A DNA stretch of 64,000 nucleotides from an uncultured bacterium (GCA_965372795.1 CBDVDR010000002.1:160001-224000); one strand, 5' to 3'. Counted from the first letter of the stretch, positions 21,662-38,978 are shown. Notes: a model not told the origin generated them from the letters alone. Translations and numbers: made by a program.

Positions 21662-21665
21662 CGGT

Positions 21666-22997: not shown

Positions 22998-23030
22998 CAC
23001 CCCCAAACAAGTTTGAGGGTGCCACCCGAC
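22998..23030. repeat. REP-like imperfect palindrome
   Basis: CACCCCCAAAC-AA-GTTTGAGGGTG followed by CCACCCGAC; GC-rich island in an AT-rich spacer; single copy seen here. Confidence 0.35.
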
Positions 23031-23047
23031 GCCCACACAAAACATTT

Positions 23048-23079
23048 AAAAAAAAAGCCTCTCAAAATGAGAGGCTTTT
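23048..23079 (-). terminator. Terminator of the GlmL-like operon
   Basis: AAGCCTCTC-N5-GAGAGGCTT with a T9 tail on the minus strand. Confidence 0.85.
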
Positions 23080-23098
23080 AAAATATTAGAAAATAATA

Positions 23099-24223
23099 TT
23101 AGTCTTCGATCATTTCCACGTTAGCGCGAGGGATAATGGCTCTTTTTCCATCCTCAAATTCTACTTCAAGCACGCGAGCCTTTGATTCGGATTCAAGAAC
23201 ATGAAGCGGGGAAGGAAGGTCTGTGACCGACCCAATCTTTCCAAAATATGGATGACGGATCACACGAACCGGAGTACCGGTTTTTAAGCCCTGGATTTCT
23301 GTGTCAGCTTCCGAAGTATCAATCCGTTCTTCGGTTGATGGAATTACAACTTCCGGTCTGATAACACCGGCACGAATCTGGGTGGCACCGTTGATGCAAG
23401 CCATTTCGCCTTCATGTTTTTTCAGAAGGTCAAAAGTTTTTGAAGCCATGTTGATTTCTCCAAAACCTTCGGTTACAACTAAAGTAACAGAGATATCTTC
23501 TGAACCGGTAATGGCAACACCGATGTCGTAGCCAAGGAAATCACGCAAGTCTTTGTCATTAAAACCACCAACAACGATCCCTTTGGCGCCGACTTCAATA
23601 GCTTTTTGCAAAGCTCCGGCAGTTACAAGAGAACCGCCAACAATGACTTTATCTTTCATGTCAGGATTTATTAAATCTTCTGTTAGCACGGTGGCATTGT
23701 CAGGGGTGGCGATAACGATATTTCCATAAGTTTCACCGCCGATACCAAAGATTCCCTGAACAAAAGAAGCATTACAAGTGACAACTACGCCTTCGTTGGG
23801 GATGACTTCGGTCACTTCACCGCGAAGATAAGCTTTGACTTCAACCGGGACCGGTAGTCCGCGTTGGAGGATTTGGCCGGTAATATGAGAAACAGATTCC
23901 AGAGTACCATTGATTGTAGCTTCAGCCGAAGAAGAGAAGAATTTAATAAATGATTTTTTAATTGCGATAGCTTCGCCTTCTTTAATTGTGTCGCCCTCTT
24001 TTTTAACCATGACCATTTCGAGATCTTCAGGAGGTAATCCAAGTTTGTTGGCTATATTCAGAGGAACTACATTACCGGGTAGGTGAGTACGAGCCACAAC
24101 AACATCGGGGGTAACTTTGTCGCCAACTTTTACCACTACATCACCCTTGAGGGGGAGGATGCGACTTTTTTGAACCAGTAATTTTTCGGTGACTTTGAGT
24201 CCCGGAGTATAGGCATGTGCCAT
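23099..24223 (-). CDS. Uncharacterised cytoplasmic protein: barrel-sandwich-hybrid repeats, alpha/beta domain, C-terminal KOW-like motif
   Basis: VKVGDKV, KKEGDTIKEGE and A...G.(L/V)..V half-motifs; LQKAIEVGAKGIVVGG; GTPVRVIRHPYFGKIGSV. Confidence 0.7.
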   Translation of the reverse strand: MAHAYTPGLKVTEKLLVQKSRILPLKGDVVVKVGDKVTPDVVVARTHLPGNVVPLNIANKLGLPPEDLEMVMVKKEGDTIKEGEAIAIKKSFIKFFSSSAEATINGTLESVSHITGQILQRGLPVPVEVKAYLRGEVTEVIPNEGVVVTCNASFVQGIFGIGGETYGNIVIATPDNATVLTEDLINPDMKDKVIVGGSLVTAGALQKAIEVGAKGIVVGGFNDKDLRDFLGYDIGVAITGSEDISVTLVVTEGFGEINMASKTFDLLKKHEGEMACINGATQIRAGVIRPEVVIPSTEERIDTSEADTEIQGLKTGTPVRVIRHPYFGKIGSVTDLPSPLHVLESESKARVLEVEFEDGKRAIIPRANVEMIED

Positions 24224-24250
24224 AGGTTTAAACCTTCCTAAATTCTTATA

Positions 24251-25006
24251 TTATGATCGAGCTTTTTTTCTTTTTTTAATAACAATAAATAAAACAACAG
24301 CAATCGCCACAAAGATAGCAACTTTCGAACCGTTGCTGCTGCCATCATCGGAGTCAGTTCCTGTTTCAATATCAGCAATTTTCACATTCTCTTTTGGAAG
24401 CGCCGCATCGACGTTTTCATCAGAGAAGGTGTTTACCATATCATAAAAGTCATTTTTACTTGTTTCAAAGAGCGAGTCAGGAGAATAGAAGAAGAATTTT
24501 GCAATTCCCCGGTTATAGAATTTGAACATTAAGAGATTCTTTTTAAAAGATTCTGCTTTTTGAGACACATCGTTTAAAACCGAAACGATCTTTTTTTCTT
24601 TGTCATAGTTGGGTGCGTTTGATTTGAGATCGGTCAGGTAGTTTGCGACCGGAAAGTATTTAAGATCCTCACCGAATAGCTTAGTCATGGTTGCGAGGAC
24701 CGAGTCAATTTGTTTATCTGACAGTTGTCCGATTTTGTCGTAGGTCAAAAACAGATATTCGCCATTATAAAAGGGGTCGTTTGTTTTGGGAGCAAAAACC
24801 GCATCATAGTAAAAACTGGCATCACCGACGTTGTTCTGTGCTAAGTACAAATCGACCGTTGGGTAATCAATTTTCACCCAGTCATCAGGGAGATTAAAAT
24901 AAAACTCGCCGCTTAAACTGACATAGTTTTTTGCAAACGAACTTGTCAGAGTTACAGTTATTAATACTATTACTACAATTGTAAGCAGTTTAATAAAAGC
25001 TCTCAT
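24251..25006 (-). CDS. Exported protein with C-terminal TM anchor and basic tail (possible PsbP/DcrB-like fold)
   Basis: Signal peptide; FYFNLPDDW; acidic linker; TM followed by KKRKKARS. Confidence 0.65.
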   Translation of the reverse strand: MRAFIKLLTIVVIVLITVTLTSSFAKNYVSLSGEFYFNLPDDWVKIDYPTVDLYLAQNNVGDASFYYDAVFAPKTNDPFYNGEYLFLTYDKIGQLSDKQIDSVLATMTKLFGEDLKYFPVANYLTDLKSNAPNYDKEKKIVSVLNDVSQKAESFKKNLLMFKFYNRGIAKFFFYSPDSLFETSKNDFYDMVNTFSDENVDAALPKENVKIADIETGTDSDDGSSNGSKVAIFVAIAVVLFIVIKKRKKARS

Positions 25007-25009
25007 ACA

Positions 25010-26884
25010 TTATTCCCCTGTTAAAGCTTGAAGTTTTTCGGTTGAATAAATATCCAACTCATTCATCCATTTGGTTAAATAACTAACTCTGTCCTTTTCG
25101 CTCAAGGTTGACAGATCAAAAGGTCTGCCACGACCATCAAGGATAACACCGACCACGCCGCCATAAACATCTTTTTCGATTTTCTGTCCTTTACCGGCGC
25201 CAAGATCGTAATGTTTGGTAGGTTCAAACGTAGCTTTGGCAACTATCGGGAGTCCGTTTTCCTGAATACCGAGGTTGAATTTTTTCATTTCGAGATGTTC
25301 AAGAGTACCACTGACCGTTCCGGATGGAAGTTCAATAGTGTAATTCATAACCGGTCCGGCACCTTTTTTGGGAACACCAACCGGGGCAACACAGGTACCA
25401 AGATGGATCAGGCAATCTTTTTCAAATACTTCAGTAGCAGCTTTTGGCTGAACTTCGGTCAAGACCCCAAGCTGAGGCATCATGAAGATTGAGTCGACAG
25501 CCAGACGGGTGACACCTTCCGGTAAGAAAGAATCAATCATCATCAAAGCTGATTGCTGACGGCGAGGTGCGTGAGAAAGAACACCGCCGGAACCGATAAG
25601 CATATCGAGCGTCATCATGTTTACAATGGTAGCACCGGAAGCCGACTGTTCGAAAGCATCGGCAATGGTACGCTGTTGTTGAACGCCTTTTAAGACGGTC
25701 GCAAAGTTTTTGTGCTGAATGAAGGCGAGACGAAGAGCTTCTTTGGCAATTGCCTGTTCAAAAATTAGTTCTTCAAGAGATTGCGGGATCGTAGTCGGGC
25801 GAATCATTTTGTTTTTAACACGGTTTCTGAGGTCGCGTTCATCCATCGGGAATGGTACCCAGCGCATAACCATAGGCAGGGTAGCTTCGGCAAATACATT
25901 TGAGATAGAGTATGACATGCCAAGGTTAGCTGATACCGTACGGTTAAAGACGCCTTCGCCGTCATCTTCCGGACGGAAGACAGAGAATACATCGGTGGTT
26001 GCTCCACCAATGTCAACGCCAACGGCTTCAATATTGTACTGTTCGGCGATAGTTTGAATAATCAGACCAACTGCTCCCGGGGTAGGCATAATTGGAGCAT
26101 CGCCCCATTCCATTAGTTTTTTATAGCCGGGTGCCTGAGCCATGACGTGTTCCATGAACAGTTCATGGATTTCTTCACGGGCAGGACCAAGATTTTCACG
26201 TTCTAAGACAGGACGAAGATTGTCGACAACTTTTAAGTCAACTTTATCAGAAAGAGTTTCTTCAACGTTTTTAGCGGCATCTTTATTGCCGGCATAAATA
26301 ATCGGTAGTTTGTAACTTGAGCCAAGACGAGGGCGCGGGTCGGCGGCTGAAATAAGTTCGGCAAGTTCGACTACGTGAGTAGTTGTGCCACCGTCAATGC
26401 CGCCGGACAGGAGAATCATGTCGGGGCGTAAGTGGCGAATGCGTTCAATTTGTTGATGGGGGAGACGTTTATCATTGGATGAGATAACGTCCATGACAAT
26501 TGCGCCGGCACCAAGGGCGGCACGTTCGGCTGATTCGGCAGTCATTGATCTGACCACGCCGGCAACCATCATCTGTAAGCCACCTCCGGCTGATGATGTA
26601 GAGATGAAGACATCGGTACCAGTATTACCTTGGGCAGGGGAAATGAATTTGCCGTTTTCGTCAAGAATTTTCCTGCCGGATAATTCTTCGAGTTCCGCAA
26701 CAGCGTTGAGAACGCCCATAGTTACATCTTCAAACGGTGCTTCAACCGTAGTTGGAGCTTCACCTCTTGTAGTTTGGCGATACTCACCATTAATGAATTC
26801 AATAAGAATTGCTTTTGTAGTAGTAGATCCGCAATCGGTGGCGACAATAATTTTAATATCGTCAGGGTTATCAAACTTAGCCAT
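25010..26884 (-). CDS. Glutamate mutase L (GlmL/MutL)-like ASKHA-fold ATPase, long form
   Basis: DCGSTTTKA and VDIGGATTDV phosphate loops; TSSAGGGL, AALGAGA, LLSGGIDGG, IMPTPGAV and RTVSANLGM motifs; 624 aa. Confidence 0.88.
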   Translation of the reverse strand: MAKFDNPDDIKIIVATDCGSTTTKAILIEFINGEYRQTTRGEAPTTVEAPFEDVTMGVLNAVAELEELSGRKILDENGKFISPAQGNTGTDVFISTSSAGGGLQMMVAGVVRSMTAESAERAALGAGAIVMDVISSNDKRLPHQQIERIRHLRPDMILLSGGIDGGTTTHVVELAELISAADPRPRLGSSYKLPIIYAGNKDAAKNVEETLSDKVDLKVVDNLRPVLERENLGPAREEIHELFMEHVMAQAPGYKKLMEWGDAPIMPTPGAVGLIIQTIAEQYNIEAVGVDIGGATTDVFSVFRPEDDGEGVFNRTVSANLGMSYSISNVFAEATLPMVMRWVPFPMDERDLRNRVKNKMIRPTTIPQSLEELIFEQAIAKEALRLAFIQHKNFATVLKGVQQQRTIADAFEQSASGATIVNMMTLDMLIGSGGVLSHAPRRQQSALMMIDSFLPEGVTRLAVDSIFMMPQLGVLTEVQPKAATEVFEKDCLIHLGTCVAPVGVPKKGAGPVMNYTIELPSGTVSGTLEHLEMKKFNLGIQENGLPIVAKATFEPTKHYDLGAGKGQKIEKDVYGGVVGVILDGRGRPFDLSTLSEKDRVSYLTKWMNELDIYSTEKLQALTGE

Positions 26885-26988
26885 TTGAAAAAACCTGTTA
26901 TTTAAATTTTAAAATTCTCTTACTTTATTGCGATAACTAATGAAACCAAAATAGTTTATCGCTTACAGTCCGTTTAACAAAGGGTGGC

Positions 26989-27017
26989 ATTATACATAAA
27001 ACATCAAATCTTGTAAA
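26989..27017 (-). promoter_or_regulatory. Sigma70-type promoter for the GlmL-like operon
   Basis: Minus strand TTTACA-N17-TATAAT. Confidence 0.65.
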
Positions 27018-27160
27018 GAGCCTTTTTAGTATAAATTAGAATTATAAGACGGCAAATAGCGGGAATTATCCAATTTATCAGAAAATGAAATTTATCGAAC
27101 GCTTTGTAGTTCATTCACAGATAGTTACAAGGGTTAAATTGCACTAATCTTTCTTTTTTC

Positions 27161-27189
27161 TTGACTTCAAAATACCAGTCTGATAGATT
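27161..27189 (+). promoter_or_regulatory. Sigma70-type promoter for the 12-gene membrane cassette array
   Basis: TTGACT-N17-TAGATT with extended -10 TGn. Confidence 0.6.
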
Positions 27190-27291
27190 GGCAACTTATT
27201 AGTATTTTATGAGGTTTGTTCTGATTTTTAGTTTGATGTTTTAAACAAGTTAATCGTTACTGAATTAACTCTAACTTGAAATGTTGGTTCT

Positions 27292-28587
27292 TTGGTTGAG
27301 GAAATGACTTTGAGTGACTTTTTGAACAATACACCTTCCATAAAAATTTTCAGGAATTACCTTATATATACATTTTTGTTACTTTTCCTAATTACATCAA
27401 ATATTTATTCACAAGATGAAATAGAGCCGGTTGATGAGCCAGCTCAAGTCTCCGATTCAGTCTTAGAAACTTTTGTACCTTCTCCCATAACTGGAATTTC
27501 GGTAAAAGATACTCCTAATGATGCCGGTAATTCAATTACAATCACTTGGGGATTATCACCTGATGATACAGTTGGCGGTAAAGTAGTAAAATATAGAATT
27601 CTCCGGTCTGATACCAGTTTTGCCGGGGATGGATATAAAGAGGTCGGCGATGTGCCGGCTGATAAAAATGAATATATTGATGGTCAGGTTGATGACGATC
27701 ATGTTTATACTTATGTAATCTCTACGGTTAATAATGTAGTAGAGAATGGTGAAACAGTTTGGGAAGTTTCAACCGAATCAGATCAGTCTGAACCGGTAAG
27801 TTCTTCGGCCCAATGGTTTGATATGAGGCGTATCAACGTCTTTGTCGGGGTGTTGATGGTTTGTGCCTTCATTATGTATTATATCAATCAGGCCAAATCA
27901 GGGAAGAAACTGTTTATACGTAAAATTGCCGGACTTGAAGCGGTGGATGAAGCTGTTGGCCGGGCAACTGAGATGGGGAAGAAGATTTTCTTTATACCCG
28001 GCACTCAGGATATGGATAATGTTCAGACGATTGCCGGAGTTACGATTTTAGGGCGTGTTGCCGAAATGGCTGCCACCTATGACACCTGGCTTGAAGTTCC
28101 CGTTTCACGTTCATTAGTATTAGTAACTGCCAAAGAGATAGTAAAAGAGGCTTACTCCAAAGCCGGTCGTCCAGATGCATTTAATGAAGATCAGGTACAT
28201 TATTTAACGGATGACCAGTTTGGGTATGCGGCGGGTATTGACGGCATGGTAGTACGTGAAAAACCGGCGACAATTTTCTTTATGGGTGCATTTTATGCCG
28301 AATCACTGATTTTGGCTGAAACCGGTAACTCAATCGGTGCGATTCAAATTGCCGGAACCGGAATGCCTTCACAACTGCCATTCTTTGTTGCTGCTTGTGA
28401 TTATACTTTAATAGGTGAAGAATTATTTGCCGCATCGGCGTATCTTTCCCGTGAGCCAAAACTTCTTGGTTCATTAAAGGGGCAGGATATGGGGAAAGCG
28501 GTAATTTTGGTAGCGATAATAATTGGAATTATATTGGAAACTTTTAATATATGGAATTTTTCATCACTATTTACGGTGATTGAGTAA
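27292..28587 (+). CDS. Cassette 1 subunit A: FN3-like domain + TM + DUF6754-like domain + TM
   Basis: Signal peptide; D.PND.G..I.ITW; IAGLEAVDEAVGRATEMG, AESLILAETG and ACDYTLIGEELFAASAYL. Start uncertain (27292-27310). Confidence 0.85.
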   Translation: MVEEMTLSDFLNNTPSIKIFRNYLIYTFLLLFLITSNIYSQDEIEPVDEPAQVSDSVLETFVPSPITGISVKDTPNDAGNSITITWGLSPDDTVGGKVVKYRILRSDTSFAGDGYKEVGDVPADKNEYIDGQVDDDHVYTYVISTVNNVVENGETVWEVSTESDQSEPVSSSAQWFDMRRINVFVGVLMVCAFIMYYINQAKSGKKLFIRKIAGLEAVDEAVGRATEMGKKIFFIPGTQDMDNVQTIAGVTILGRVAEMAATYDTWLEVPVSRSLVLVTAKEIVKEAYSKAGRPDAFNEDQVHYLTDDQFGYAAGIDGMVVREKPATIFFMGAFYAESLILAETGNSIGAIQIAGTGMPSQLPFFVAACDYTLIGEELFAASAYLSREPKLLGSLKGQDMGKAVILVAIIIGIILETFNIWNFSSLFTVIE

Positions 28588-28590
28588 GCG

Positions 28591-29238
28591 ATGCGTAGAG
28601 AAATACCGTTATTAATAACCGGCATCGTCGGTGTGGTTTTTGTGATTCAATATTTTGTTCCACATGCCCCCTTTGATCGGATGAATGCATGGTTTTCGGA
28701 TTGGTTTTCTATAATAGGTGCCTGTGCTATCTGGCTTGGTGCGCTTAATTTGTTGAAGATATCTTTCCAAAAGACAATGAAAAAGAAAGCTGACTGGGGT
28801 TATGCCGTTGTTACAATAATTTCTTTTTTCCTGATCACAATAATCGGATTTACTGCGGGCGAAGGGTTTCGGGAGCCGGGAACAGGCTTTACCTGGCTTT
28901 ATGATTTTGTATACACGCCGCTTTCGGCAACGATGTTTGCAATCTTAGCCTTTTTTGTCGCGTCAGCTTCTTATCGCGCTTTTAGAGCCCGAAATCTTGA
29001 TGCGACCCTTCTATTAGTAGCTGCGTTTTTGGTGATGATTGGAAGAGTGCCGGTGGGATATAGTATATCGTCATTTATGCCGGATGCTTTTCAGCTTCAA
29101 AATATAGCGACCTGGATAATGCAGTTTCCTCAGACTGCCGGCCAGCGGGCAATTATGATTGGTATCGCTCTTGGGATTGTCTCTACATCACTCAGAATTA
29201 TTCTTGGTATTGAACGTTCACATCTGGGGGGTGATTAA
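28591..29238 (+). CDS. Cassette 1 subunit B: polytopic membrane protein
   Basis: MRREIPL, TMFAILAFFVASASYRAFRARN and QRAIMIGI...ILGIER motifs. Confidence 0.85.
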   Translation: MRREIPLLITGIVGVVFVIQYFVPHAPFDRMNAWFSDWFSIIGACAIWLGALNLLKISFQKTMKKKADWGYAVVTIISFFLITIIGFTAGEGFREPGTGFTWLYDFVYTPLSATMFAILAFFVASASYRAFRARNLDATLLLVAAFLVMIGRVPVGYSISSFMPDAFQLQNIATWIMQFPQTAGQRAIMIGIALGIVSTSLRIILGIERSHLGGD

Positions 29239-30249
29239 TTGAGTACAAAAATTAAAGAATTGATTGTAGTAGCAATTATTCTGATTGTATCAATTGTATT
29301 TTATTTAGCAAAAATAAATAGCTGGTTTGGAGCAATTAAATTTTCAACGACCGTATCAATGATAATTGTCGGATTGATTTTTATCTCCTTATTGTATATT
29401 CTTTTCTTGACTCTAAAAGGGAAGCCGGTTGGTCGAAGGACAGTTTTCTTATATGTCGGTATTGCGGTATCACTTCCATTTTTTATGGATATTTCCCAGA
29501 CAATAAAGATTTCTCCAGAGGTTCAAACTTTGTATGATTGGATCGAAACCCTTCCGCCGGGTTCCAAAGCATTAGTGTCATTCGATTATGATCCTCCTTC
29601 AGCACCTGAACTTCAGCCGATGGCAGAATCATTTTTCCGCTTCTGTTTTAATAATGATATCAAAGTCATAATTATAGGTCTTTGGCCACAAGGTCCTCAA
29701 CAGGCGAACCTTGCCCTTGAAGTTGTTTTACAGGATGAAAATATAGCGGCTAAAAATTTACAGTATGGTATTGATTACGTTAATTTGGGATTCCAAACCG
29801 GGAATGAGTTTGTTATTCAAAGGATGGGTGCGGATTTTAAATCAATGTTTCCGACAGATTATTCCGGAACCGCTTACGATGATCTTCCTTTAGTAAAGAA
29901 CGTAAAGAATTTTGATAATATAGATTACAGTTTTAATTTATCTGCCGGTTATCCGGGAACAATCGAGTGGGTGCAGGTAGCGGTTGACCGTTACGCTGTT
30001 GATTTGGGTGCCGGCAATACTGCCGTACAGGCACCGCAATGTTATCCATATCTGAGGTCCGGACAGTTGAAAGGGATTCTCGGCGGCATGAATGGTGCGG
30101 CTGAATTTGAATTACTTACCGGACATGAAGGTAAAGGCACAAAGTTTATGTTGTCTCAATCATTTGCTCATATGGTTGTGATAGCATTTATTCTTATTGG
30201 TAATGTCGCCTATTTCAGGGGCGGTCGAGAGAAGAAACTCAAAGGTTAA
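29239..30249 (+). CDS. Cassette 1 subunit C: membrane-anchored alpha/beta protein
   Basis: SFDYDP..APELQPM, DYVNLG, YPYL.SGQL.GILGG..GAAEFE and QSFAH motifs. Confidence 0.85.
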   Translation: MSTKIKELIVVAIILIVSIVFYLAKINSWFGAIKFSTTVSMIIVGLIFISLLYILFLTLKGKPVGRRTVFLYVGIAVSLPFFMDISQTIKISPEVQTLYDWIETLPPGSKALVSFDYDPPSAPELQPMAESFFRFCFNNDIKVIIIGLWPQGPQQANLALEVVLQDENIAAKNLQYGIDYVNLGFQTGNEFVIQRMGADFKSMFPTDYSGTAYDDLPLVKNVKNFDNIDYSFNLSAGYPGTIEWVQVAVDRYAVDLGAGNTAVQAPQCYPYLRSGQLKGILGGMNGAAEFELLTGHEGKGTKFMLSQSFAHMVVIAFILIGNVAYFRGGREKKLKG

Positions 30250-30256
30250 GCGAATT

Positions 30257-30880
30257 ATGGATCATTTTTCAGTATGGGTTGCAGCTTTTTTTACAATGGG
30301 AATTGTTTCCTTTTTGTACAAGGACAATCACTGGTACAAACTCTGTGAATCAATTTTTGTTGGGATTTCTGCCGGATACTGGTTTGTGACTTTGTTCTGG
30401 GATAATATCTACGGGAAATTCTGGCTTGGCAAGGGTGAAGACCCGATGCTTTATGTCGGAGCCTTGTTGGGATTAATGATGATTCTCAGGTTGATTCCTA
30501 AAATTGGATGGATCTCCCGTTGGCCCTTGGCATTCATTGTCGGTGCGACCTCGGGTTTGTATCTTATAAATTATTTTTCATCAAATATAATGCGTCAGGT
30601 TGAAAATACGGTTATGCCGTTATTTGGCGCCGGATATGAAGCTGGAATTTATACTATAATCGGTAATATTATTGTGGCCGTCGGTACGTTTTCAGGGCTG
30701 ATTTATTTCTTTTTCTCAAAAGAACACAAAGGCGCCTTTGGCGCTACCGCCCGAGTCGGAATTATCTTTTTAATGATAACTTTCGGTGCATCTTTTGGCT
30801 ATACCGTTATGAGCCGTATGTCGCTTTTGATCGGACGAATTGACTTCCTGCTTGGCGACTGGCTGGGGATGATTAACTAG
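30257..30880 (+). CDS. Cassette 1 subunit D: polytopic membrane protein
   Basis: SFLYKDN, SRWP, YFFFSKEH and FGASFGYTVMSR; ATG at 30257. Confidence 0.85.
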   Translation: MDHFSVWVAAFFTMGIVSFLYKDNHWYKLCESIFVGISAGYWFVTLFWDNIYGKFWLGKGEDPMLYVGALLGLMMILRLIPKIGWISRWPLAFIVGATSGLYLINYFSSNIMRQVENTVMPLFGAGYEAGIYTIIGNIIVAVGTFSGLIYFFFSKEHKGAFGATARVGIIFLMITFGASFGYTVMSRMSLLIGRIDFLLGDWLGMIN

Positions 30881-32112
30881 TGAGAAATAAAAAATCAAAA
30901 TTACCTTTGTTGTTTTTATCAATTTTAATCGTCATCTCATTTAATATTTCAATCTTTTCTCAGGAAACTCCGGTTGTTGAAGAGGTAGATTCAACAATTA
31001 TTGTTGCCGCCCCGGTAACATCTCTGATAGCATCTGATTTTAAATATGATGATGGAGAAGCCATTGAATTAAGCTGGGTGCCGTCGATAGACGACCAACT
31101 GGTTGAGGGGAAAGTAATTGCTTATCGGGTTTACCGGAGAACAAATGGTGCTTTAGAGGAAAAGATTGCCGAACTACCGAAAGGTTCTGCTTACTACCGT
31201 GATGACGGTTTGGAAAAAGAGAATAGCTATATGTATAGTGTCACTTCTGTTTCGCTAAATTTTGAGCAATTCTCAACCGAGACGGCGCCGATTAGTCCTG
31301 AGAGAGAATGGCTTAACTATGATCGTTCGTATTTATTCTTAATAGCATTAATTATCACTTTGGCAATCGCTTTTTTCATAGAAACCGCCCGTCGCGGGAA
31401 AAAATTATTTGTCCGGAAGATTGCCGGATTAGAAGCTATTGACGAAGCAATCGGTCGTGCGACCGAAATGGGACGTCCGATTTTATATGTTCCGGGTATT
31501 CAGGATATGGATGATGTGCAGACTCTTGCCGGTTTAACAATTCTTGGACGAGTCTCCCGAATGATTGCTGAATATGATACCCGAATTTTTATGCCTGTTT
31601 CCCGTTCGTTGGTTATGACCGCCGGACGTGAAACGATTAAAGCTGCCTATCAATCAGCCGGTCGTCCTGATGCTTATAGCGATGACATGGTAAACTATAT
31701 AACAGACGAACAGTTTGGTTATGTTGCGGCGGTAGATGGAATTATGGTCCGTGAAAAACCGGCGACCTGTTTCTACATGGGAGCTTTCTTTGCGGAATCG
31801 CTTATTTTAGCAGAAACCGGAAATTCAATCGGAGCCATTCAGATAGCGGGTACTGCCCGTCCGGCACAGCTTCCATTTTTTATTGCCGCCTGTGATTTTA
31901 CTCTTATTGGTGAAGAACTGTTTGCAGCTTCGGCATATTTATCTAACGAACCAAAGCAGTTGGGTTCGTTAAAGGGTCAGGATATCGGCAAAGCGATAGC
32001 ATTAGTAGTGATTTTGATAGGCGTTATTTCAGCGACATTTTCTAAGGCATGGGATATAGAATTTATGACCGCAATTTTTGAATATTTAACAAATGTATTT
32101 TCTGTTAGTTAG
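30880..32112 (+). CDS. Cassette 2 subunit A (FN3-like + DUF6754-like)
   Basis: Paralogue of 27292-28587 (IAGLEAIDEAIGRATEMG); GTG start overlaps the D1 stop. Confidence 0.85.
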   Translation: MRNKKSKLPLLFLSILIVISFNISIFSQETPVVEEVDSTIIVAAPVTSLIASDFKYDDGEAIELSWVPSIDDQLVEGKVIAYRVYRRTNGALEEKIAELPKGSAYYRDDGLEKENSYMYSVTSVSLNFEQFSTETAPISPEREWLNYDRSYLFLIALIITLAIAFFIETARRGKKLFVRKIAGLEAIDEAIGRATEMGRPILYVPGIQDMDDVQTLAGLTILGRVSRMIAEYDTRIFMPVSRSLVMTAGRETIKAAYQSAGRPDAYSDDMVNYITDEQFGYVAAVDGIMVREKPATCFYMGAFFAESLILAETGNSIGAIQIAGTARPAQLPFFIAACDFTLIGEELFAASAYLSNEPKQLGSLKGQDIGKAIALVVILIGVISATFSKAWDIEFMTAIFEYLTNVFSVS

Positions 32113-32124
32113 TGAAAAGATAAT

Positions 32125-32799
32125 ATGAGAAGACAGATACCATTATTAATTACTTTTTTTGTTGGAACGCTTCTAATTGTTGCGGTTTTTGTTCCACCAT
32201 TTGAAAGCCTTGAGAAAACTTTTACGCTGTTTTTTGATATTATTGCTGTGTTCGCATTTTTTCTCGGCGGTGGCAACCTTGTCAGAGTTCATGTCAGAAA
32301 ATTGATTAGCAAAAAAGAGGACTGGACTTTTTCTATTGTAACTCTTGCTGGGTTTACCTTAATGCTCGTTGTCGGTTTATTCAAAATGGGCAACCCGGGT
32401 GGGATTGCCGCCTCGATTACTACCGAAGGTTCTTATTTTCAGGAAATATTTAATAACGTCATCAACCCGCTTCAATCCACGATGTATGCGTTATTAGCCT
32501 TTTTTGTAGCCTCGGCTTCCTATCGTGCCTTCCGGGCTAAAAACCGGGAAGCCACAATTCTTTTGGTCGCTGCCTTTATTATTCTTTTAGGGCGGACACC
32601 ATTAGGAATGATGATGACGGGGTGGATTCCTGAAAGCTTTTCAATTATGCAAATCCCGAATCTTGCAATATGGATTATGAATTCACCAAACTTAGCCGGT
32701 CAGAGAGCAATTATGATCGGGATTGGTTTGGGTGTTGTCTCGATGTCACTACGGTTAATACTTGGGATTGAACGAACCTATTTAGGAGGGGATGATTGA
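32125..32799 (+). CDS. Cassette 2 subunit B
   Basis: MRRQIPL, AFFVASASYRAFRAKN, ILGIER. Confidence 0.85.
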   Translation: MRRQIPLLITFFVGTLLIVAVFVPPFESLEKTFTLFFDIIAVFAFFLGGGNLVRVHVRKLISKKEDWTFSIVTLAGFTLMLVVGLFKMGNPGGIAASITTEGSYFQEIFNNVINPLQSTMYALLAFFVASASYRAFRAKNREATILLVAAFIILLGRTPLGMMMTGWIPESFSIMQIPNLAIWIMNSPNLAGQRAIMIGIGLGVVSMSLRLILGIERTYLGGDD

Positions 32800-33739
32800 T
32801 ATGCTAAATCCGATTCTTATCTCCCTGTCTAATATTGGTGTTATAATTTCGGTAATTATGATATTCGGCGGCTTGCTCTGGTTATTTATCAGATCAATCA
32901 AAGCTAAGGAAGTAGATCGCCGAATTATTTTCATATTTATATTTGTGGCTGTTGCCGCTCCAATTTTATTCCCGATTACCTTTGAAGAAAAAGCGACTCC
33001 GATTGTTAAAGCGGTTTTTGATAAAATTGAAAATCTTCCTCCCGGTTCAAATATGTTAATTTCATTTGATTTTGATCCGGCTATGGCTCCTGAAGTTCAG
33101 CCGATGGCTAATGCGATTAGTGCTCATGCACTTGAAAAAGGGCATAAGATAATTTTCATGTCACTTTGGGCGACCGGTCAGGCTTTGTTGTCGCAGACCC
33201 TTGATAATGTTATTCTGCCTCAGTTTCCTGAAAAGCAGGATTTGGTTGATTATGTTAATATCGGTTACAAGGCTGGGAATGAAGGCGTTTTGAATGTGAT
33301 CGTCGGTGATTTCAGGCAGATGTTTCCGACTGATGTAAATTCGGTTCCACTTGATGATATCGAATTATTTAATAATATAAAATCATGTAAAGATATGGAC
33401 TTAATCATTTCTATCGGTGGCGGGAAACCGGGACCGAAGGAATGGGTTTTATTCGTTGGCGATCCCGGTGATGTTCCGGTTGGGGCAGGGGTTGCGGCGG
33501 TAGTTGCTCCGCAGTTGTATCCTTATTTTCCAAGTCAGGTTGTAGGCATTCTTGGAGGAATAAAGGGAGCCGCTGAATATGAATCTGAATTAGTTTCAAG
33601 GCATGAAAAATTTAAAGATATGGATACTCCCGGATTGAGAATGATGGGTCCTCAGACATTAGCTCATATTGTTATTATGGCCTTTATTGTAATTGGGAAT
33701 GTGATTTATTTTCGCAGCCGCAAAGGGGAGACAAGATGA
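32792..33739 (+). CDS. Cassette 2 subunit C
   Basis: SFDFDPAMAPEVQPM, GILGGIKGAAEYE, QTLAH. Confidence 0.85.
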   Translation: MIDMLNPILISLSNIGVIISVIMIFGGLLWLFIRSIKAKEVDRRIIFIFIFVAVAAPILFPITFEEKATPIVKAVFDKIENLPPGSNMLISFDFDPAMAPEVQPMANAISAHALEKGHKIIFMSLWATGQALLSQTLDNVILPQFPEKQDLVDYVNIGYKAGNEGVLNVIVGDFRQMFPTDVNSVPLDDIELFNNIKSCKDMDLIISIGGGKPGPKEWVLFVGDPGDVPVGAGVAAVVAPQLYPYFPSQVVGILGGIKGAAEYESELVSRHEKFKDMDTPGLRMMGPQTLAHIVIMAFIVIGNVIYFRSRKGETR

Positions 33740-34578
33740 AAAAGTCGTCCTATATTGTCTTAGCGGTTGTCATGGGTTTATTTATTTTGAGTTGGATTAT
33801 GAAGTCCTCATCAGTGAGTGTTGCCGATGATAATTTTATCATGCGTGGTTTTCTGATCACTTTTGCCGCATTTTTAACACTGTCGGTTCTATCGTTTTTA
33901 TATAAAGATAATCCTTTTTACAAATTTGCCGAGCATCTGTTTGTAGGCGTTTCAGCCGCTTTCTGGATGTGTCTCGGGTTCTGGTCAACTATTGTTGGTA
34001 ATTTGATTCCCAGAATTTCAGCAGATTTATCGGAATTTTTTAAAGTTCCATATATAGGCGACGCCTGGGGATTAATATTCGGTTTAGATATTATGAACAT
34101 TGTCTATATGTTCCCTATCATTTTTGGTTTGCTTCTCTTGATGAGGCTGTCGACTAATTATGGGTGGTTATCCCGCTGGCCTCTGGCGCTGATCGTTGGA
34201 ACAACAGCCGGGTTAAATTTTATTCGTTACTTGTCCTCTGATTTTATTCAGCAGGTTTCTTCGACTTTTGTACCTTTGCTGGGTACTGATTGGCAGGGAA
34301 TCGGACATTTCTTTGCCAACATCAATCTGTCAGCTTCGGGACAATTAGTATTGATCCTTGCCAACTGGGTCATATTTCTCGGTGTTTTTTGCGGATTGAT
34401 ATATTTCTATTTTTCCAAAGAACATACCGGAGTCTTCGGGTCGGCCTCAAGGGTTGGTATTTGGATTTTAATGGTGACCTTCGGCGCATCATTTGGATAT
34501 ACGGTTATGGGACGCATCTCGCTTTTAGTCGGACGAATCACTTTTCTATTCAAAGATTGGTTAGAAATAATAACTTAA
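33736..34578 (+). CDS. Cassette 2 subunit D
   Basis: SFLYKDNPFYK, SRWP, FGASFGYTVMGR. Confidence 0.85.
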   Translation: MKKSSYIVLAVVMGLFILSWIMKSSSVSVADDNFIMRGFLITFAAFLTLSVLSFLYKDNPFYKFAEHLFVGVSAAFWMCLGFWSTIVGNLIPRISADLSEFFKVPYIGDAWGLIFGLDIMNIVYMFPIIFGLLLLMRLSTNYGWLSRWPLALIVGTTAGLNFIRYLSSDFIQQVSSTFVPLLGTDWQGIGHFFANINLSASGQLVLILANWVIFLGVFCGLIYFYFSKEHTGVFGSASRVGIWILMVTFGASFGYTVMGRISLLVGRITFLFKDWLEIIT

Positions 34579-34624
34579 TTAAGATACTATAATATTAATT
34601 TATAATACTTACAGGGAAAACTGT

Positions 34625-36025
34625 ATGAAATGTAAATCGGTAATCATATTACTTATGCTGTTTGTAATGTCGTTGCCTGTAGCCGCCCAGGATGAAGCTG
34701 TGACCGATAGTCTGGCCGATTCCACCGAAGTAATCCTTCCGGCTCCAGCTACGATGTTTACAGGCAAGGATACCGACAACGATCATGGTCATTCTGTCAC
34801 GTTAAACTGGGAAACCTCAGTTGATGATGGAAGTGACGATGCTTCAATTTCAGTTCTGTCTTATGAAATCTTTCGCTGGACTCCTTTGATGAGAGATACA
34901 GTTGAACAGGTTCGCAGCAAACTTGCTATAGCAGAGTCAGCTTTGGATGAAGGTGCTGGAATTAAGAGTGAATTGAAGCAGAGCCGAGATGACCTTCTTG
35001 AAGAATATGAAGCCTTGTTGGTTGGATATCCTCAGGCTTATGATCAGTATCCAGAAAATGGTGGATGGACAAATGTTGGCAAAGTGCCATCCGGTACTAC
35101 CACCTTTCAGGATAAAGGCAGCAAAAAGCGTGAAGCATTTGATTATTCTCCTGATTTTTGCAACTTTTATTATCGGGTGGATGCAGTCACCGTTGATTCC
35201 ACAATAAGATCATCATCTGAGATTTTCGGACCGGTGCAATCATTCGGTCAGTGGTTTAACAGCGGGCGTCTTCCGGTATTTTTGGCTGTTTTAATCTTTG
35301 GGCTATTGACTCTATTCTTTGTTCAAAGAGCCAAAAGAGGTGCTAATTTATATGTGCGTCCTTTGGCAGGTATCGAAGCCGTTGACGATGCTATCGGTCG
35401 GGCTACAGAAATGGGTAAACCGATTCTTTATGTTCTTGGCTTGGGTACAGCCTCAGATGTTGCGACTATCGCTTCATTTACAATTTTAGGTCGTGTGGCA
35501 AAAAAAGTTGCTGAATATCAGACAACCTTGATTGTGCCGACTTATGATCCGATTGTAATGACAGTTGCTCAGGAAGTTGTAAAGTCAGCTTTCCTTGATG
35601 CCGGTCGTCCTGATGATTTTAAAGAAGATACGGTTCACTTTGTGACCCAGTCACAGTTTGCTTATGTTGCAGCTGTCAATGGTACAATGCTTCGTGAACT
35701 TCCGGCTACAAATGTTTATATGGGTAAATTCTTTGCAGAATCGTTGCTTCTTGCAGAAACAGGAGCAATTGCTAAATCGGTTCAAATTGCCGGTACAGAT
35801 GAAATTGCTCAGATACCTTTCTTTATTGTAGCTTGTGACTATACATTAATAGGAGAAGAATTATACGCTGCTTCGGCTTATCTTGGTCGTGAGCCTATTT
35901 TATTAGGTTCCTTAAAAGCTCAGGATTGGGCAAAGGCTGCAGTAATTATTCTTGGAATCGTCGGTATAATAGCCGCTAACTTTGGCCTGACAGAATTTAC
36001 CAGTCTGTTTCAGGTAACTAATTAG
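34625..36025 (+). CDS. Cassette 3 subunit A (FN3-like with helical insert + DUF6754-like)
   Basis: LAGIEAVDDAIGRATEMG, ACDYTLIGEELYAASAYL. Confidence 0.85.
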   Translation: MKCKSVIILLMLFVMSLPVAAQDEAVTDSLADSTEVILPAPATMFTGKDTDNDHGHSVTLNWETSVDDGSDDASISVLSYEIFRWTPLMRDTVEQVRSKLAIAESALDEGAGIKSELKQSRDDLLEEYEALLVGYPQAYDQYPENGGWTNVGKVPSGTTTFQDKGSKKREAFDYSPDFCNFYYRVDAVTVDSTIRSSSEIFGPVQSFGQWFNSGRLPVFLAVLIFGLLTLFFVQRAKRGANLYVRPLAGIEAVDDAIGRATEMGKPILYVLGLGTASDVATIASFTILGRVAKKVAEYQTTLIVPTYDPIVMTVAQEVVKSAFLDAGRPDDFKEDTVHFVTQSQFAYVAAVNGTMLRELPATNVYMGKFFAESLLLAETGAIAKSVQIAGTDEIAQIPFFIVACDYTLIGEELYAASAYLGREPILLGSLKAQDWAKAAVIILGIVGIIAANFGLTEFTSLFQVTN

Positions 36026-36038
36026 GAGGTGGAATAGA

Positions 36039-36854
36039 ATGAAAAGACAAATACCTCTCTTTTTAGTTTTTCTGTTCGGAATGTTCATGATAATTCAATA
36101 TTTTGTACCTCATGAATCATCTGAATGGATCTATGAATTCCTTCTCGAATGGATTGTGATTATCGGAATTTTTGCGCTTGCACTCGGAATCTGGTCGCTG
36201 TTGAGAGTTTCATTAGATAAAATTAAAACTAAAAAACCGAATTGGATATATTCATATCTGACATTATTCGGACTTTTTGCAATGATCATTTTCGGTTTCA
36301 CAGCGAAGAATGGCGATCCGTGGGGGATGTATTTCCCATTTGTTGCCTGTGTTCTGTTGGCTATTGGAATGATAATTCATACGATAATTTCATCATCGCA
36401 AAAAACCTTGTACGCTTCGCTGACAGGACTATTTATTTTATTGGCGGTCCTTATCTCAATTTTTGACAGCAGCTGGAGTTTCCATTTCAGCACTGCCGAT
36501 GGTGTTCAGAACCCGATGTTCAGAGCCTTCTTTGATCATATCTTGATTCCGTGCTTGTCAACAATGTTTGCCCTGTTAGCATTCTTTATTGCATCAGCAG
36601 CCTATCGTGCCTTTAGAGCAAGGAATCTTCTGGCAACCCTTCTGTTAATCGCGGCACTTATTGTGATGATGCGATTTAATCCGTGGTTTGCAGCACTTTA
36701 TGGTGATTTTGGTGCTAAAACATCTAACTGGCTTATGAATGTTCCCAACTTGGCAGCTCAGCGAGCTATCGTTATCGGGATTGGTCTCGGTATCGTTGCT
36801 ACTGCTCTAAAAGTTATCCTGGGCATTGAACGCGGCTATATGGGGAAAGGATAA
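36039..36854 (+). CDS. Cassette 3 subunit B
   Basis: MKRQIPL, AFFIASAAYRAFRARN, ILGIER; two extra TM helices; AGGAGG RBS. Confidence 0.85.
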   Translation: MKRQIPLFLVFLFGMFMIIQYFVPHESSEWIYEFLLEWIVIIGIFALALGIWSLLRVSLDKIKTKKPNWIYSYLTLFGLFAMIIFGFTAKNGDPWGMYFPFVACVLLAIGMIIHTIISSSQKTLYASLTGLFILLAVLISIFDSSWSFHFSTADGVQNPMFRAFFDHILIPCLSTMFALLAFFIASAAYRAFRARNLLATLLLIAALIVMMRFNPWFAALYGDFGAKTSNWLMNVPNLAAQRAIVIGIGLGIVATALKVILGIERGYMGKG

Positions 36855-36864
36855 GGAGGACAGT

Positions 36865-37743
36865 ATGGATGTATTTGAAAAACTGATGAATCTTGACCGT
36901 CGCTGGGTCTTTTTGCTTTTGATAATTGTTTGTGTATTCTCATATGCTGTTGATTTTAATGTTCCCATTTTGGTTGAACCGGAAACAGAAAAGATATTTG
37001 AGTTTATTGACAATCTTGATGAAGGCGAAATTATACTAGTTGCAATAGATTATGATCCTAATAACATGGCCGAACTTCACCCTATGACCTATACGGTGGT
37101 TGAGCATTGCTGGCGTAAAAAAGTCAAAGTGATTTTTACAGCTTTGTCTCAGAACGGTCCCGGCATGGCGGATCAGGCGATACGTGATATCTCAGACTCA
37201 TTACTTATTGATAAAACTTATAACGGTGTTGAGTTTGAAGGCCGAGAGATCGTAAATGGAATAGATTACTGCTTCCTTGGTTATAAACCATATTATGCAC
37301 TTGTAATTCTGGCAATGGGGCAGGATTTCAGACTGCCTTTCCCGAATGATTACTATGGCAGTCCCCTTGATTCATTACCAATGATGAGAGGTGTCAGCAA
37401 TTACGATGACATGGCTTGTGTTGTTGATCTTTCCGGTGGTAATATAACTGATGCCTGGATTTCATACGGACAGGGCAGATTCGGATTCCCGCTTGCTCTT
37501 GGGCTTACCGGTGTAATGACAGCTCAGTATTATCCATTCCTTGGTTCAGGTCAGGTTTTTGGAATAATGGGAGGACTTTTAGGAGCCGCCCAATATGAAG
37601 AAATGGCTGAGAATCCCGGCTTGGCTAAAGATGGAATGCGAGTTCAGCTTGGGGCTCATGTTGTAATCATAATTTTTATTATTATGGGTAACGTTGGATT
37701 ATTGATGGAACGTCGCAGACAAAGAAGGGAAGGAGGTATCTAA
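36865..37743 (+). CDS. Cassette 3 subunit C
   Basis: AIDYDP..MAELHPM, GIMGGLLGAAQYE, QLGAH; AAGGAGG RBS before ATG 36865. Confidence 0.85.
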   Translation: MDVFEKLMNLDRRWVFLLLIIVCVFSYAVDFNVPILVEPETEKIFEFIDNLDEGEIILVAIDYDPNNMAELHPMTYTVVEHCWRKKVKVIFTALSQNGPGMADQAIRDISDSLLIDKTYNGVEFEGREIVNGIDYCFLGYKPYYALVILAMGQDFRLPFPNDYYGSPLDSLPMMRGVSNYDDMACVVDLSGGNITDAWISYGQGRFGFPLALGLTGVMTAQYYPFLGSGQVFGIMGGLLGAAQYEEMAENPGLAKDGMRVQLGAHVVIIIFIIMGNVGLLMERRRQRREGGI

Positions 37744-38549
37744 TGGATTTTACTACTTTTATATGGACTACTTTTGGTGCCTTTTTAACCCTTGGCATCT
37801 TTTCGTTCCTGTACAAAGATAACCCATTCTATAAGATTGCCGAGCATCTTGTAGTAGGTGTTTCAGCAGGATATTTTGTGGTTATTTTATGGCATAACGG
37901 ACTAACCCCAAACCTATTTCAACGTCTTGACGATGGCAGTTGGTATTTACTATGGCTAAATTCTTCAGCGCCATGGTATATTGTGCCGGCGCTTTTGGGT
38001 GTCTTGATGTGGACTCGTTTCTCAAAGAAATATTCCTGGGTTTCCCGTTGGCCGATGGGCTTATATATTGGTATTGCAACCGGTGTTGCTATCCCGCTTG
38101 AAATGGGTGCCAAAGTAAACCGTCAGTTGTTTGCAGTCATGGAAAAAGGTATCGATTGGACCAATTTCTTTGGTGTCAATGGATTTAATCTGTTGGATTC
38201 AGCTTCCGGCTTATCACAGTTAATAATTTTCGTCGGAACTGTTGCCGCTTTGGTGTACTTTTTCTTCTCCAAAGCCCATACCGGTGTTTTTGGCGGAGTT
38301 GCAAAGTTTGGAATCTGGATATTAATGATAGGTTTCGGAGCCTCTTTTGGCTATACGGTGATGGCTCGAATATCACTGTTTATTAACCGTCTGCAGTTCC
38401 TTGATATCAACTGGTATCAGAATGCGATGGATACTTCCAACGCCAATCATCATGCCGGCTTCCTAATCTTTTTCTGGTTGCTGGTACTGCTTGTGCTTGG
38501 ATATGCAGTTAAAGAATTTATAGATTTCAGGAAATCTAAGTCAGCTTAA
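37743..38549 (+). CDS. Cassette 3 subunit D
   Basis: SFLYKDNPFYK, SRWP, FGASFGYTVMAR. Confidence 0.85.
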   Translation: MDFTTFIWTTFGAFLTLGIFSFLYKDNPFYKIAEHLVVGVSAGYFVVILWHNGLTPNLFQRLDDGSWYLLWLNSSAPWYIVPALLGVLMWTRFSKKYSWVSRWPMGLYIGIATGVAIPLEMGAKVNRQLFAVMEKGIDWTNFFGVNGFNLLDSASGLSQLIIFVGTVAALVYFFFSKAHTGVFGGVAKFGIWILMIGFGASFGYTVMARISLFINRLQFLDINWYQNAMDTSNANHHAGFLIFFWLLVLLVLGYAVKEFIDFRKSKSA

Positions 38550-38569
38550 TAGATTTTTAGTTTAAAAAT

Positions 38570-38603
38570 AAATCCCGTTATTGAGAAATAGCGGGATTTT
38601 TTT
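38570..38603 (+). terminator. Terminator closing the 12-gene array
   Basis: AAATCCCGTTATT-GAGA-AATAGCGGGATTT followed by a T-run. Confidence 0.8.
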
Positions 38604-38978
38604 GTTGTATTATCAAACTTTTTATTATAACTACAGTACAAGGATTAGAACTTGTTGCCCCCGGCTGGAATTATTTCAGCCATAAATTCATTTCCGAGCT
38701 TGCCTTTTTACGGCAGGCAATAATCAAATAAGACAACTTTGGTTTGTTTTTTTGTCGTATTTATTCGTATAATCAAATATGACATTGTTAATGTATGTCA
38801 AGTAAATCACCTTAAACTCAGTACTTTAAGGGGGACAATGGTTTGTATGTTCCTGAGATGAACAGCATAACTCATGTTATTCCTTTGTTTTAAGATATCT
38901 ATAAATTGATCAATGAAATAAGTCATTCAACGACTGCTCATTAAGAAATAATTATTTTAGAAAAAACAAAGATTTTAC

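Follow-up and report, generated by a model that had tools for sequence, protein, structure and literature searches.

We examined a 64,000-nucleotide stretch of DNA from an uncultured bacterium (GCA_965372795.1 CBDVDR010000002.1:160001-224000), hereafter the window, in which positions 23,099 to 38,603 carry two divergent operons. One of them encodes a long GlmL-like protein (GlmL-long) and X374, a protein of 374 amino acids (aa); the other encodes three tandem copies of a four-gene membrane cassette, A-B-C-D. At the genomic level, a link between GlmL-long/X374 and the A-D unit can be considered established, with independent genomic evidence coming from conserved synteny, co-occurrence across genomes and a fusion of the GlmL-like and X374-like proteins. 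A sequence-only reading of the same DNA had proposed a functional tie of this kind, and the proposal is supported by these three lines of evidence as well as by three checks reported below, none of which spoke against it. On balance we think it likely, if far from certain, that one shared ATPase module drives interchangeable four-subunit membrane modules and that together they make up one conserved uncharacterized system.

Two divergent operons and their conservation across genomes

Listing and translation of the open reading frames (ORFs) of the 64-kb window placed two operons with opposite directions on either side of a spacer of 407-419 bp. The leftward operon (- strand) encodes, in order from the spacer, GlmL-long, Y251 and X374. 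The rightward operon (+ strand) comprises twelve ORFs, from 27292 (an ATG at 27304 is the more likely start) to 38549, and when the longest ORFs are taken every junction between them is an overlap or a gap of at most 46 nt. In an all-against-all blastp comparison the twelve ORFs form four families in the order (A-B-C-D)x3. Identity between paralogues is 39-49% in family A, 34-48% in B, 30-40% in C and 41-43% in D, at E-values between 1e-137 and 4e-34. The features of the locus, in window coordinates, are listed below.

23079-23053 (-): terminator-like hairpin of the leftward operon, 12 pairs and a T run, directly after X374
23099-24223 (-): X374, 374 aa, three-domain model
24251-25006 (-): Y251, N- and C-terminal hydrophobic helices
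25010-26884 (-): GlmL-long, 624 aa, PF13941 at 433.9 bits
27017-26989 (-): leftward sigma-70-like promoter, TTTACA-17-TATAAT, 11/12 consensus
27161-27189 (+): rightward sigma-70-like promoter, TTGACT-17-TAGATT, 9/12 consensus, preceded by a T run
27292 (likely true start ATG 27304)-28587 (+): A1, PF20539 at 426.5 bits
28591-29238 (+): B1, polytopic, about 6 helices, no family match
29239-30249 (+): C1, helix, soluble domain of about 220 aa, helix; no family match
30197-30880 (+): D1, polytopic; longest ORF, true start probably the ATG after the C1 stop; no family match
30880-32112 (+): A2, PF20539 at 415.9 bits, 49% identity to A1
32125-32799 (+): B2, 48% identity to B1
32792-33739 (+): C2, 40% identity to C1
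33736-34578 (+): D2, 43% identity to D1
34625-36025 (+): A3, PF20539 at 379.6 bits, 39% identity to A1 and A2, longer exported N-terminal part
36039-36854 (+): B3, 34-36% identity to B1 and B2, insertion of about 50 aa
36826-37743 (+): C3, 30-35% identity to C1 and C2
37743-38549 (+): D3, 41-42% identity to D1 and D2
38570-38599 (+): terminator-like hairpin of the rightward operon, 13 pairs and a T run, directly after D3

The sequence-only reading had described twelve tightly coupled rightward genes in the order (A-B-C-D)x3, which the ORFs and the blastp comparison bear out. Its leftward operon of a GlmL-like ASKHA protein, an anchored exported protein and a barrel-sandwich/KOW protein likewise agrees with the PF13941 match, the helices of Y251 and the structural model of X374. 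Among named records, the sequences closest to X374 (73-76% identical) mostly carry the title Candidatus Zixiibacteriota and in a few cases Ignavibacteriales, and on this basis we take the phylum of the window to be Zixibacteria.

In order to determine whether the arrangement is conserved, we compared about 20 kb around GlmL-long in 40 Zixibacteria genomes from 17 families. X374 follows GlmL in 34 of these 40 loci; five of the six remaining genomes were searched and X374 was present elsewhere in all five, in one of them directly upstream of an A gene. Cassettes occur within about 9 kb of GlmL in 17 of the 40 loci, with a divergent layout in 4 (family f1) and a co-directional layout in 13, and the co-directional string GlmL>X374>A>B>C>D>A>B>C>D is found in families f7, f8, f10, f11, f12 and f16. 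Additionally, a scan with the X374 alignment, taking one genome per species, gave at least 597 confirmed places, from which 80 loci were kept and mapped (phyla other than Zixibacteria are named here after record titles). GlmL lies upstream of X374 in 63 of the 80 loci. Among the 17 loci that lack it, an assembly gap falls where GlmL would be in one and, apart from seven that are taken up below, the rest start too close to X374 to show whether it is there. An A gene is present in 33 of the 80 loci, divergent in 10 and co-directional in 23. A single-cassette version, GlmL>X374>A>B>C>D, was found in CSSED10-310 (L096), Fibrobacterota (L097) and Marinimicrobia (L110, L113) as well as in loci L099, L103, L115 and L128, and the shorter string X374>A>B>C>D in L100 and L122. 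Neighboring genes beyond this set differ between lineages, and no other enzyme gene travels with it. With the lipoyl-bearing E2 and the LplA/LipB-type protein of the window as the two queries, homologues turned up in none of the 40 Zixibacteria flanks, nor in the flank of the locus itself, and in none of the 80 X374 loci. The check on whether adjacency persists in other genomes thus found it in two layouts, in 17 of 40 Zixibacteria loci and 33 of 80 X374 loci. In the protein Atlas, by cluster label alone, relatives of A fall mostly in Zixibacteria, Eisenbacteria and Planctomycetota, and those of X374 in Zixibacteria, Planctomycetota, Chloroflexota and Fidelibacterota.

The second line of evidence is co-occurrence. 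DUF6754, the Pfam family of the A proteins (PF20539), is present in all 201 sampled Zixibacteria genomes, with 4 to 6 matches in most, and GlmL-long in all 101 sampled, almost always as a single copy. Full-length GlmL-long matches are 75-89% identical, and the sole fragmentary hit, in one genome, is preceded by a run of 100 N, that is, by an assembly gap. In Marinimicrobia, three separate searches of 81 genomes found DUF6754, X374 and GlmL-long in the same 56 genomes and none of them in the other 25; the X374 search gave one extra 20-bit, chance-level hit outside the 56. Hand counts show GlmL directly upstream of X374 in 56 of 56; in 41 of 56, X374 and A are no more than about 2.5 kb apart on a shared contig and strand. 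In Fibrobacterota, DUF6754 and X374 occur in the same 2 of 61 genomes. The co-occurrence check that the sequence-only reading had called for therefore came out in exact agreement over the 81 Marinimicrobia and 61 Fibrobacterota genomes. Five X374-bearing genomes of other phyla (Marinimicrobia, Fibrobacterota, CSSED10-310, Sumerlaeota and Armatimonadia) all carry DUF6754 in 1 to 3 copies, and 14 control genomes gave no DUF6754 match. We also observed that Marinimicrobia genomes listed at about 0.9-1.1 Mb (G228, G236, G244, G272, G280) keep the whole GlmL>X374>A string, and the system seems to survive strong genome reduction.

The third line of evidence is gene fusion. In three Zixibacteria genomes a single ORF of 924-982 aa joins a GlmL-like part (41-43% identical over residues 8-588) to an X374-like part (24-30% identical). 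These fused ORFs, all on the - strand (L131:3301-6075, L132:2580-5399, L133:3010-5958), represent a second, diverged copy, and the genomes also keep the unfused pair. The fusion supports a direct functional tie between the two proteins.

Properties of the putative ATPase pair and of the membrane cassettes

GlmL-long is a member of PF13941 (gathering score 27), matched over profile positions 1-450, and carries a C-terminal extension of about 130 aa. It falls short of the relevant NCBIfam equivalogs: it scores 240.7 against a cut-off of 475 for GlmL (NF040745), 223.4 against 600 for Or-4 (NF040744) and 177.5 against 204.05 for TIGR01319. The motifs D-x-G-S-T-T-T-K, D-G-G-T, D-I-G-G-A-T-T-D and G-S-G-G are invariant in 24 GlmL-long sequences from several phyla, and those of other phyla are 63-71% identical to the window protein. 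There is a weak match to the Pfam family Hydantoinase_A (E 2.6e-4, below cut-off), and a sequence/profile search of PDB with GlmL-long gave no match.

GlmL, also called MutL, is the name of an accessory protein of the coenzyme-B12-dependent glutamate (methylaspartate) mutase, and the sequence-only reading had pointed out that neither mutase subunit is encoded in the window. A search with PF06368 found no GlmE, and hence no GlmS-GlmE pair, in the window or in the whole genome, which is 98.65% complete. GlmE scores above cut-off in 6 of the 101 sampled Zixibacteria genomes, compared with 101 of 101 for the long GlmL, which answers the check on whether the long GlmL follows GlmS/GlmE: it does not. 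These counts, together with NCBIfam scores of about half the equivalog cut-offs, argue that the long GlmL is independent of glutamate mutase. Judged by its sequence, GlmL-long is an ASKHA (actin/Hsp70-fold) ATPase-type protein and not a glutamate mutase accessory. It shares with GlmL/MutL and Or-4 the ASKHA family and the nucleotide-binding motifs, and differs from them in its sub-cut-off scores, its length of 624 aa, its extension and a genome without the mutase; instead of a mutase, it accompanies X374 and DUF6754 cassettes. In the six GlmE-bearing genomes (G011, G012, G014, G027, G030, G096) the GlmE frames are 648-677 aa long for a family model of 441 positions, a length that points to a fusion; in none of the six did the GlmL-long query pick up a second GlmL-type gene.

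X374 was modeled with a mean predicted local distance difference test score (pLDDT) of 83.7 as three domains. The N-terminal barrel-sandwich hybrid resembles the N-terminus of NqrA/RnfC (Z 7.2-7.5 over 62-64 residues), the middle swiveling beta/beta/alpha domain resembles the phospho-His domain of enzyme I of the phosphotransferase system (Z 9.9) and also RraA, and the C-terminal KOW/SH3-like domain resembles the KOW domain of NusG/Spt5 (Z about 8). One Atlas cluster of X374 relatives is named 'putative RnfC barrel sandwich hybrid domain'. X374 matches nothing above any Pfam or NCBIfam cut-off, its sequence/profile search of PDB gave only chance-level rows (E at least 0.14), and Foldseek searches of PDB with the X374 model and with the A model returned no match at E up to 0.001. 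No invariant Lys or His was seen at the expected carrier position among the invariant alignment columns. X374 has no predicted hydrophobic helix and is probably a cytoplasmic partner protein of GlmL-long. Its identity is 61-78% across Zixibacteria and 50-60% in other phyla. A complex prediction for X374 with the A1 cytoplasmic domain gave no answer (score 0.00 in two runs without controls) and speaks neither for nor against binding.

The remaining leftward gene encodes Y251, which starts with a helix that is a signal or an anchor, ends with a membrane helix followed by a K/R-rich tail, and has no Pfam or NCBIfam match. Of the 40 Zixibacteria loci, 14 have it between GlmL and X374, and these 14 belong to families f1-f4. 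Thus, while Y251 is present in the operon as the sequence-only reading had it, it does not hold as a general part; because it is limited to four related families, we regard it as an accessory.

Proteins A1-A3 belong to DUF6754 with 380-427 bits against a cut-off of 27. The long form of A consists of a signal peptide, an exported FN3 domain (the only domain that a PDB profile search matched in A), a helix, the Rossmann-like DUF6754 domain and another helix; a model of a short A paralogue (pLDDT 82.4) likewise shows a Rossmann-like alpha/beta domain flanked by two membrane helices. A signal peptide and FN3 domain before the first helix, and K/R residues after it, place the Rossmann-like domain in the cytoplasm. 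The best structural matches of the A model are generic, with Z of about 10 for phosphoglycerate kinase, sirtuins and short-chain dehydrogenases, none of which stands out, and weaker matches (Z 9) to transhydrogenase domain III and KTN/RCK domains. Neither a B12-binding nor another cofactor motif was recognized among the invariant columns of A. A proteins of 914-938 aa, with an exported N-terminal region of about 650 aa, were seen in three loci (L099:7987-10803, L100:11118-13862, L128:11239-14034), and where A proteins of other phyla are very long, their N-terminal extensions gave only weak FN3-like matches in Pfam.

According to rough predictions from hydropathy, B and D each contain about five to six helices, and C has a soluble domain between two helices with K/R residues on the outer flanks of both; by the positive-inside rule, the soluble domain of C is probably periplasmic. 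The nine B, C and D proteins of the window match nothing above any Pfam or NCBIfam cut-off. When alignments of 33 B, 31 C and 29 D members were searched with E up to 1, no family was consistently found, the best being TMD0_ABC in 14 of 33 B, with all matches below cut-off. Searches of PDB sequences with E up to 1 gave no match for B and D, and for C two chance-level rows (E at least 0.14). The check on whether A-D match a characterized transporter hence found A in DUF6754 only and B, C and D in nothing. We also considered the cassette as an internal duplication (A-B / A'-B'), which found no support in sequence: profile-profile comparison gave 1.7% for A versus C and 0.2% for B versus D.

The window does not hold all cassettes of the genome. 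There are five DUF6754 genes in total, each followed by B, C and D (tblastn), three of them in the window, one on contig C7 and one on contig C18; the triplication noted in the sequence-only reading therefore stands for the tandem copies in the window, and not as a count of the whole-genome set. The two stand-alone cassettes (G000:C7:146960-149940, in L007; G000:C18:48524-51400, in L008) have short A proteins of 288 and 280 aa without the exported domain (PF20539 at 396.2 and 329.5 bits). On C7, a 386-aa ORF without a Pfam match follows D with a slight overlap (L007:7852-9012, -). GlmL-long, X374 and Y251 are single-copy in this genome with five cassettes.

We built a maximum-likelihood tree of 52 A domains, which is rooted at the midpoint only. 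A1, A2 and A3 fall in three separate, well-supported clades, each common to other Zixibacteria families, which argues that the triplication is old and not a recent tandem event. A genes adjoining X374 or GlmL form a clade of 19 rows (support 98/96). Sequences from other phyla are scattered between the clades, and long branches lead to both stand-alone copies. Among the A paralogues of the window, the membrane and cytoplasmic core is 51-62% identical and the exported part 18-26%; C is 29-37% identical. A conserved core of A with diverged outer parts fits one shared cytoplasmic partner and diversified outer faces.

Several small proteins accompany the set. A companion of about 90-150 aa with the motif PAI.FLE..KPLNFIGSQ is encoded just upstream of GlmL in several phyla; in Marinimicrobia its place is after X374 and before A. 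Genes for a two-helix membrane protein and for a 72-aa protein often come ahead of it, and in other Zixibacteria families, too, these small genes directly precede GlmL-long or lie between X374 and A. In the genome of the window, the three companion genes lie on contig C5 (G000:C5:152539-153717, equivalent to L130:6539-7717) and encode proteins of 72 aa, of 183 aa with two helices and of 152 aa with the motif PAILFLESVKPLNFIGSQ. They adjoin ribosomal protein genes, behind a gene for an LpoA-like TPR/Peripla_BP_6 protein, and have no Pfam match. They are probably further parts of the system, and the window would then hold most of it, not all.

A proposed shared motor for several membrane units, and its alternatives

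The reading that we favor, in which a single ATPase pair powers several membrane units, may be outlined as follows. GlmL-long, as an ASKHA ATPase, and X374, as its obligate partner, would form a cytoplasmic module. The membrane module would consist of interchangeable inner-membrane A-B-C-D units with B and D as the polytopic core; A would present its conserved Rossmann-like domain on the cytoplasmic face and, in its long forms, the FN3 domain in the periplasm, to which C would add its soluble domain. GlmL-long and X374 could bind the A-D unit at its conserved cytoplasmic face, and ATP binding and hydrolysis could be coupled to conformational work in B/D and the periplasmic parts, with uptake, export or mechanical work on the envelope as the output. 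In Zixibacteria the membrane module would have expanded to five paralogues of old origin in each genome, with the single ATPase pair serving all five. We favor this reading because there is one pair for one to five cassettes, because the cytoplasmic parts are conserved and the periplasmic parts diversified, and because the layout is like that of an importer of the ATP-binding cassette (ABC) type. The strong constraint on the cytoplasmic parts across phyla (63-71% for GlmL-long, 50-60% for X374) also appears to support it.

A number of observations weigh on the other side. There is no cassette within about 9 kb of GlmL in 23 of 40 Zixibacteria loci, the cassettes on C7 and C18 adjoin unrelated housekeeping genes, 7 of the 80 X374 loci have 10 kb of gap-free upstream DNA without GlmL, and in 15 of the 56 Marinimicrobia genomes A is on another contig or distant, in one case by about 1.07 Mb. 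The counts for Marinimicrobia and Fibrobacterota ignore kinship, and the 25 and 59 non-carriers could reflect very few losses or gains. The domain of A has only generic Rossmann-like matches (best Z about 10) and no recognized nucleotide-binding motif. Finally, a physical complex, the use of ATP, and transport or mechanotransduction are what we infer from these genomes.

Among the alternatives, a role in maintenance or assembly is the one to weigh first, and we think it unlikely. Here GlmL-long/X374 would not power the membrane unit but spend ATP on loading, exchanging or releasing a ligand or cofactor at the Rossmann-like cytoplasmic domain of A, or on assembling A-D. A-D for its part would be a secondary transporter or an enzyme coupled to ions or to redox chemistry. 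GlmL relatives act as reactivases of B12 enzymes, and the large subunit of diol dehydratase reactivase has a swiveling domain and binds a small Rossmann-like subunit. In line with this, GlmL-long belongs to PF13941, whose named members are accessory proteins of B12 mutases, X374 has a swiveling beta/beta/alpha middle domain (Z 9.9), and A has a Rossmann-like domain whose matches at Z 9-10 include sirtuins and transhydrogenase domain III. The comparable parts of the B12 reactivases DdrAB and EutA are an ASKHA ATPase, a swiveling domain and a small Rossmann-like partner; here, however, they are distributed among GlmL-long, X374 and a membrane protein, and there is no B12 enzyme. The fold matches listed for X374 and the PDB sequence search with GlmL-long include no reactivase, a result that weighs little either way. 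The lack of a recognizable B12-binding or other cofactor motif in A, and Rossmann-like matches that are generic with none outstanding, count against this explanation. The extreme conservation of GlmL-long fits a powering role and a chaperone role alike.

It is rather improbable, in our view, that the two groups of proteins are pathway partners without contact, with GlmL-long/X374 acting as a soluble ATP-dependent enzyme on a compound moved by A-D. Relatives with the ASKHA fold include hydantoinase, oxoprolinase and acetone carboxylase, and the sub-cut-off Hydantoinase_A match of GlmL-long (E 2.6e-4) points this way, as do a biotinyl/lipoyl-like barrel in X374 combined with a domain like the mobile domain of phosphoenolpyruvate-utilizing enzymes, as in swinging-arm enzymes, and the loss of adjacency in many genomes where co-occurrence is kept. 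However, X374 has no invariant Lys or His at the expected carrier position, no other enzyme gene travels with the set and its neighbors vary by lineage, and conservation in A is much higher in the cytoplasmic domain than in the outer parts, which is easier to explain by a shared protein partner.

A scaffold for the envelope or for division, with a membrane-tethered actin-fold protein organizing A-D units for cell-wall or outer-membrane upkeep, is very unlikely. FtsA, MreB and PilM are membrane-tethered scaffolds with the actin fold, GlmL-long belongs to the actin/Hsp70 fold family, and envelope genes do lie nearby (Tol-Pal directly downstream of X374 in families f1-f4, the LpoA-like TPR/Peripla_BP_6 gene upstream of the companions, and RlpA-like, CdsA, Ctp, FtsEX and M23 genes in other phyla), but each such neighborhood is restricted to one lineage, in this locus a terminator-like hairpin stands between X374 and tolQ, and we know of no evidence that PF13941 proteins polymerize.

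Returning to the proposed shared ATPase motor, one functional comparison is with ABC importers in which several sets of permeases and binding proteins use a common ATPase, for example of the MsiK type. The likeness may consist of two polytopic proteins (B and D), a periplasmic C and a cytoplasmic coupling A, with several diverged membrane sets per single ATPase in a genome. In contrast to ABC importers, the candidate motor here has the actin/Hsp70 fold and is not a P-loop ATPase, neither ABC permeases nor their binding proteins are related to it in sequence, and transport is a prediction. The present system may also work like the mechanotransmitting ABC systems MacB, FtsEX and LolCDE, with ATP use in the cytoplasm passed via membrane helices to periplasmic domains in a bacterium that has two membranes; no homology to them was found and the comparison is one of analogy. 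The likeness to Rnf and Na+-NQR is confined to the N-terminal barrel of X374, which lacks their iron-sulfur and flavin domains, and Pfam and NCBIfam searches of the neighboring genes gave no match to Rnf/Nqr membrane-subunit families. As for DUF6754, of which A1-A3 are clear members, it is a catalog entry without a function, and B, C, D, X374 and the small companions fall outside every Pfam family. Beyond generic folds, we found no solved relative of any of the parts. A literature search found no paper naming DUF6754 or PF13941, and the matches listed for 'GlmL' were unrelated titles, in agreement with the sequence-only reading, whose author knew of no functional description of such a system.

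From these comparisons, the set matches no studied system and is probably an undescribed ATP-coupled membrane machine. More tentatively, and with a chance that we put at clearly less than even, it could represent a new class of ATP-driven membrane machine, in which the motor is an ASKHA ATPase with an adaptor, neither P-loop nor P-type nor rotary, that plugs into interchangeable two-faced modules. Six to nine genes without a described function are conserved here at the level of core housekeeping genes; all sampled Zixibacteria have the set, as do two thirds of the sampled Marinimicrobia, which are a major lineage in the ocean. The ATPase is routinely mislabeled 'glutamate mutase L', and annotation should be corrected in the genomes of several hundred species (at least 597 were matched). 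If the ATPase does power the membrane units, this would be a new energizing principle in membrane biology and a previously unrecognized way for bacteria to power transport or envelope work. The pattern of presence and absence in Marinimicrobia and Fibrobacterota offers a direct route to function through comparative genomics.

Transcription signals and neighboring genes

The sequence-only reading had placed a spacer of about 400 bp between divergent operons, with a promoter on each strand and a terminator at each end. A scan for promoter consensus sites overall barely beats chance (56 sites versus 43.7 +/- 6.9 in shuffles). Because such a scan alone is weak evidence, we aligned the spacer of this locus with 13 spacers of other genomes with the divergent layout (14 in total). 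Both promoter sites are the sole conserved islands of this alignment, which elsewhere is unalignable with a mean column identity of 32%. At the rightward promoter, all 14 spacers share CTTGACTT and every T of TAGATT without change, and the same is true of GTAAA in the leftward -35 element. The scan and the alignment together bear out the described arrangement. In an Rfam search over 22700-39600 with E up to 1, there were two sub-threshold matches only, both on the terminator hairpins, and no riboswitch or leader was found; the match on the leftward hairpin is to a leader family, at 35.5 bits against a cut-off of 55. A further promoter-like site, TTAAGA-16-TATAAT (10/12), is located at 34579-34606 (+) in the 46-nt gap before A3 and could be an internal start for the third cassette.

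A complete Tol-Pal cluster is encoded at 18106-22807 (-) and comprises TolQ, TolR, a TonB_2/TolA-like protein, TolB, an OmpA-type Pal and a TPR protein like YbgF. The tolQ gene starts 290 nt past X374, beyond the terminator-like hairpin, and Tol-Pal genes precede or follow the GlmL/X374 operon in Zixibacteria families f1-f4 only. On the other side, 12 kb past the cassettes, the window contains a gene for the lipoyl-bearing E2 component of a 2-oxoacid dehydrogenase and a gene for a lipoyl ligase of the LplA/LipB type, at 50861-52923 (+).

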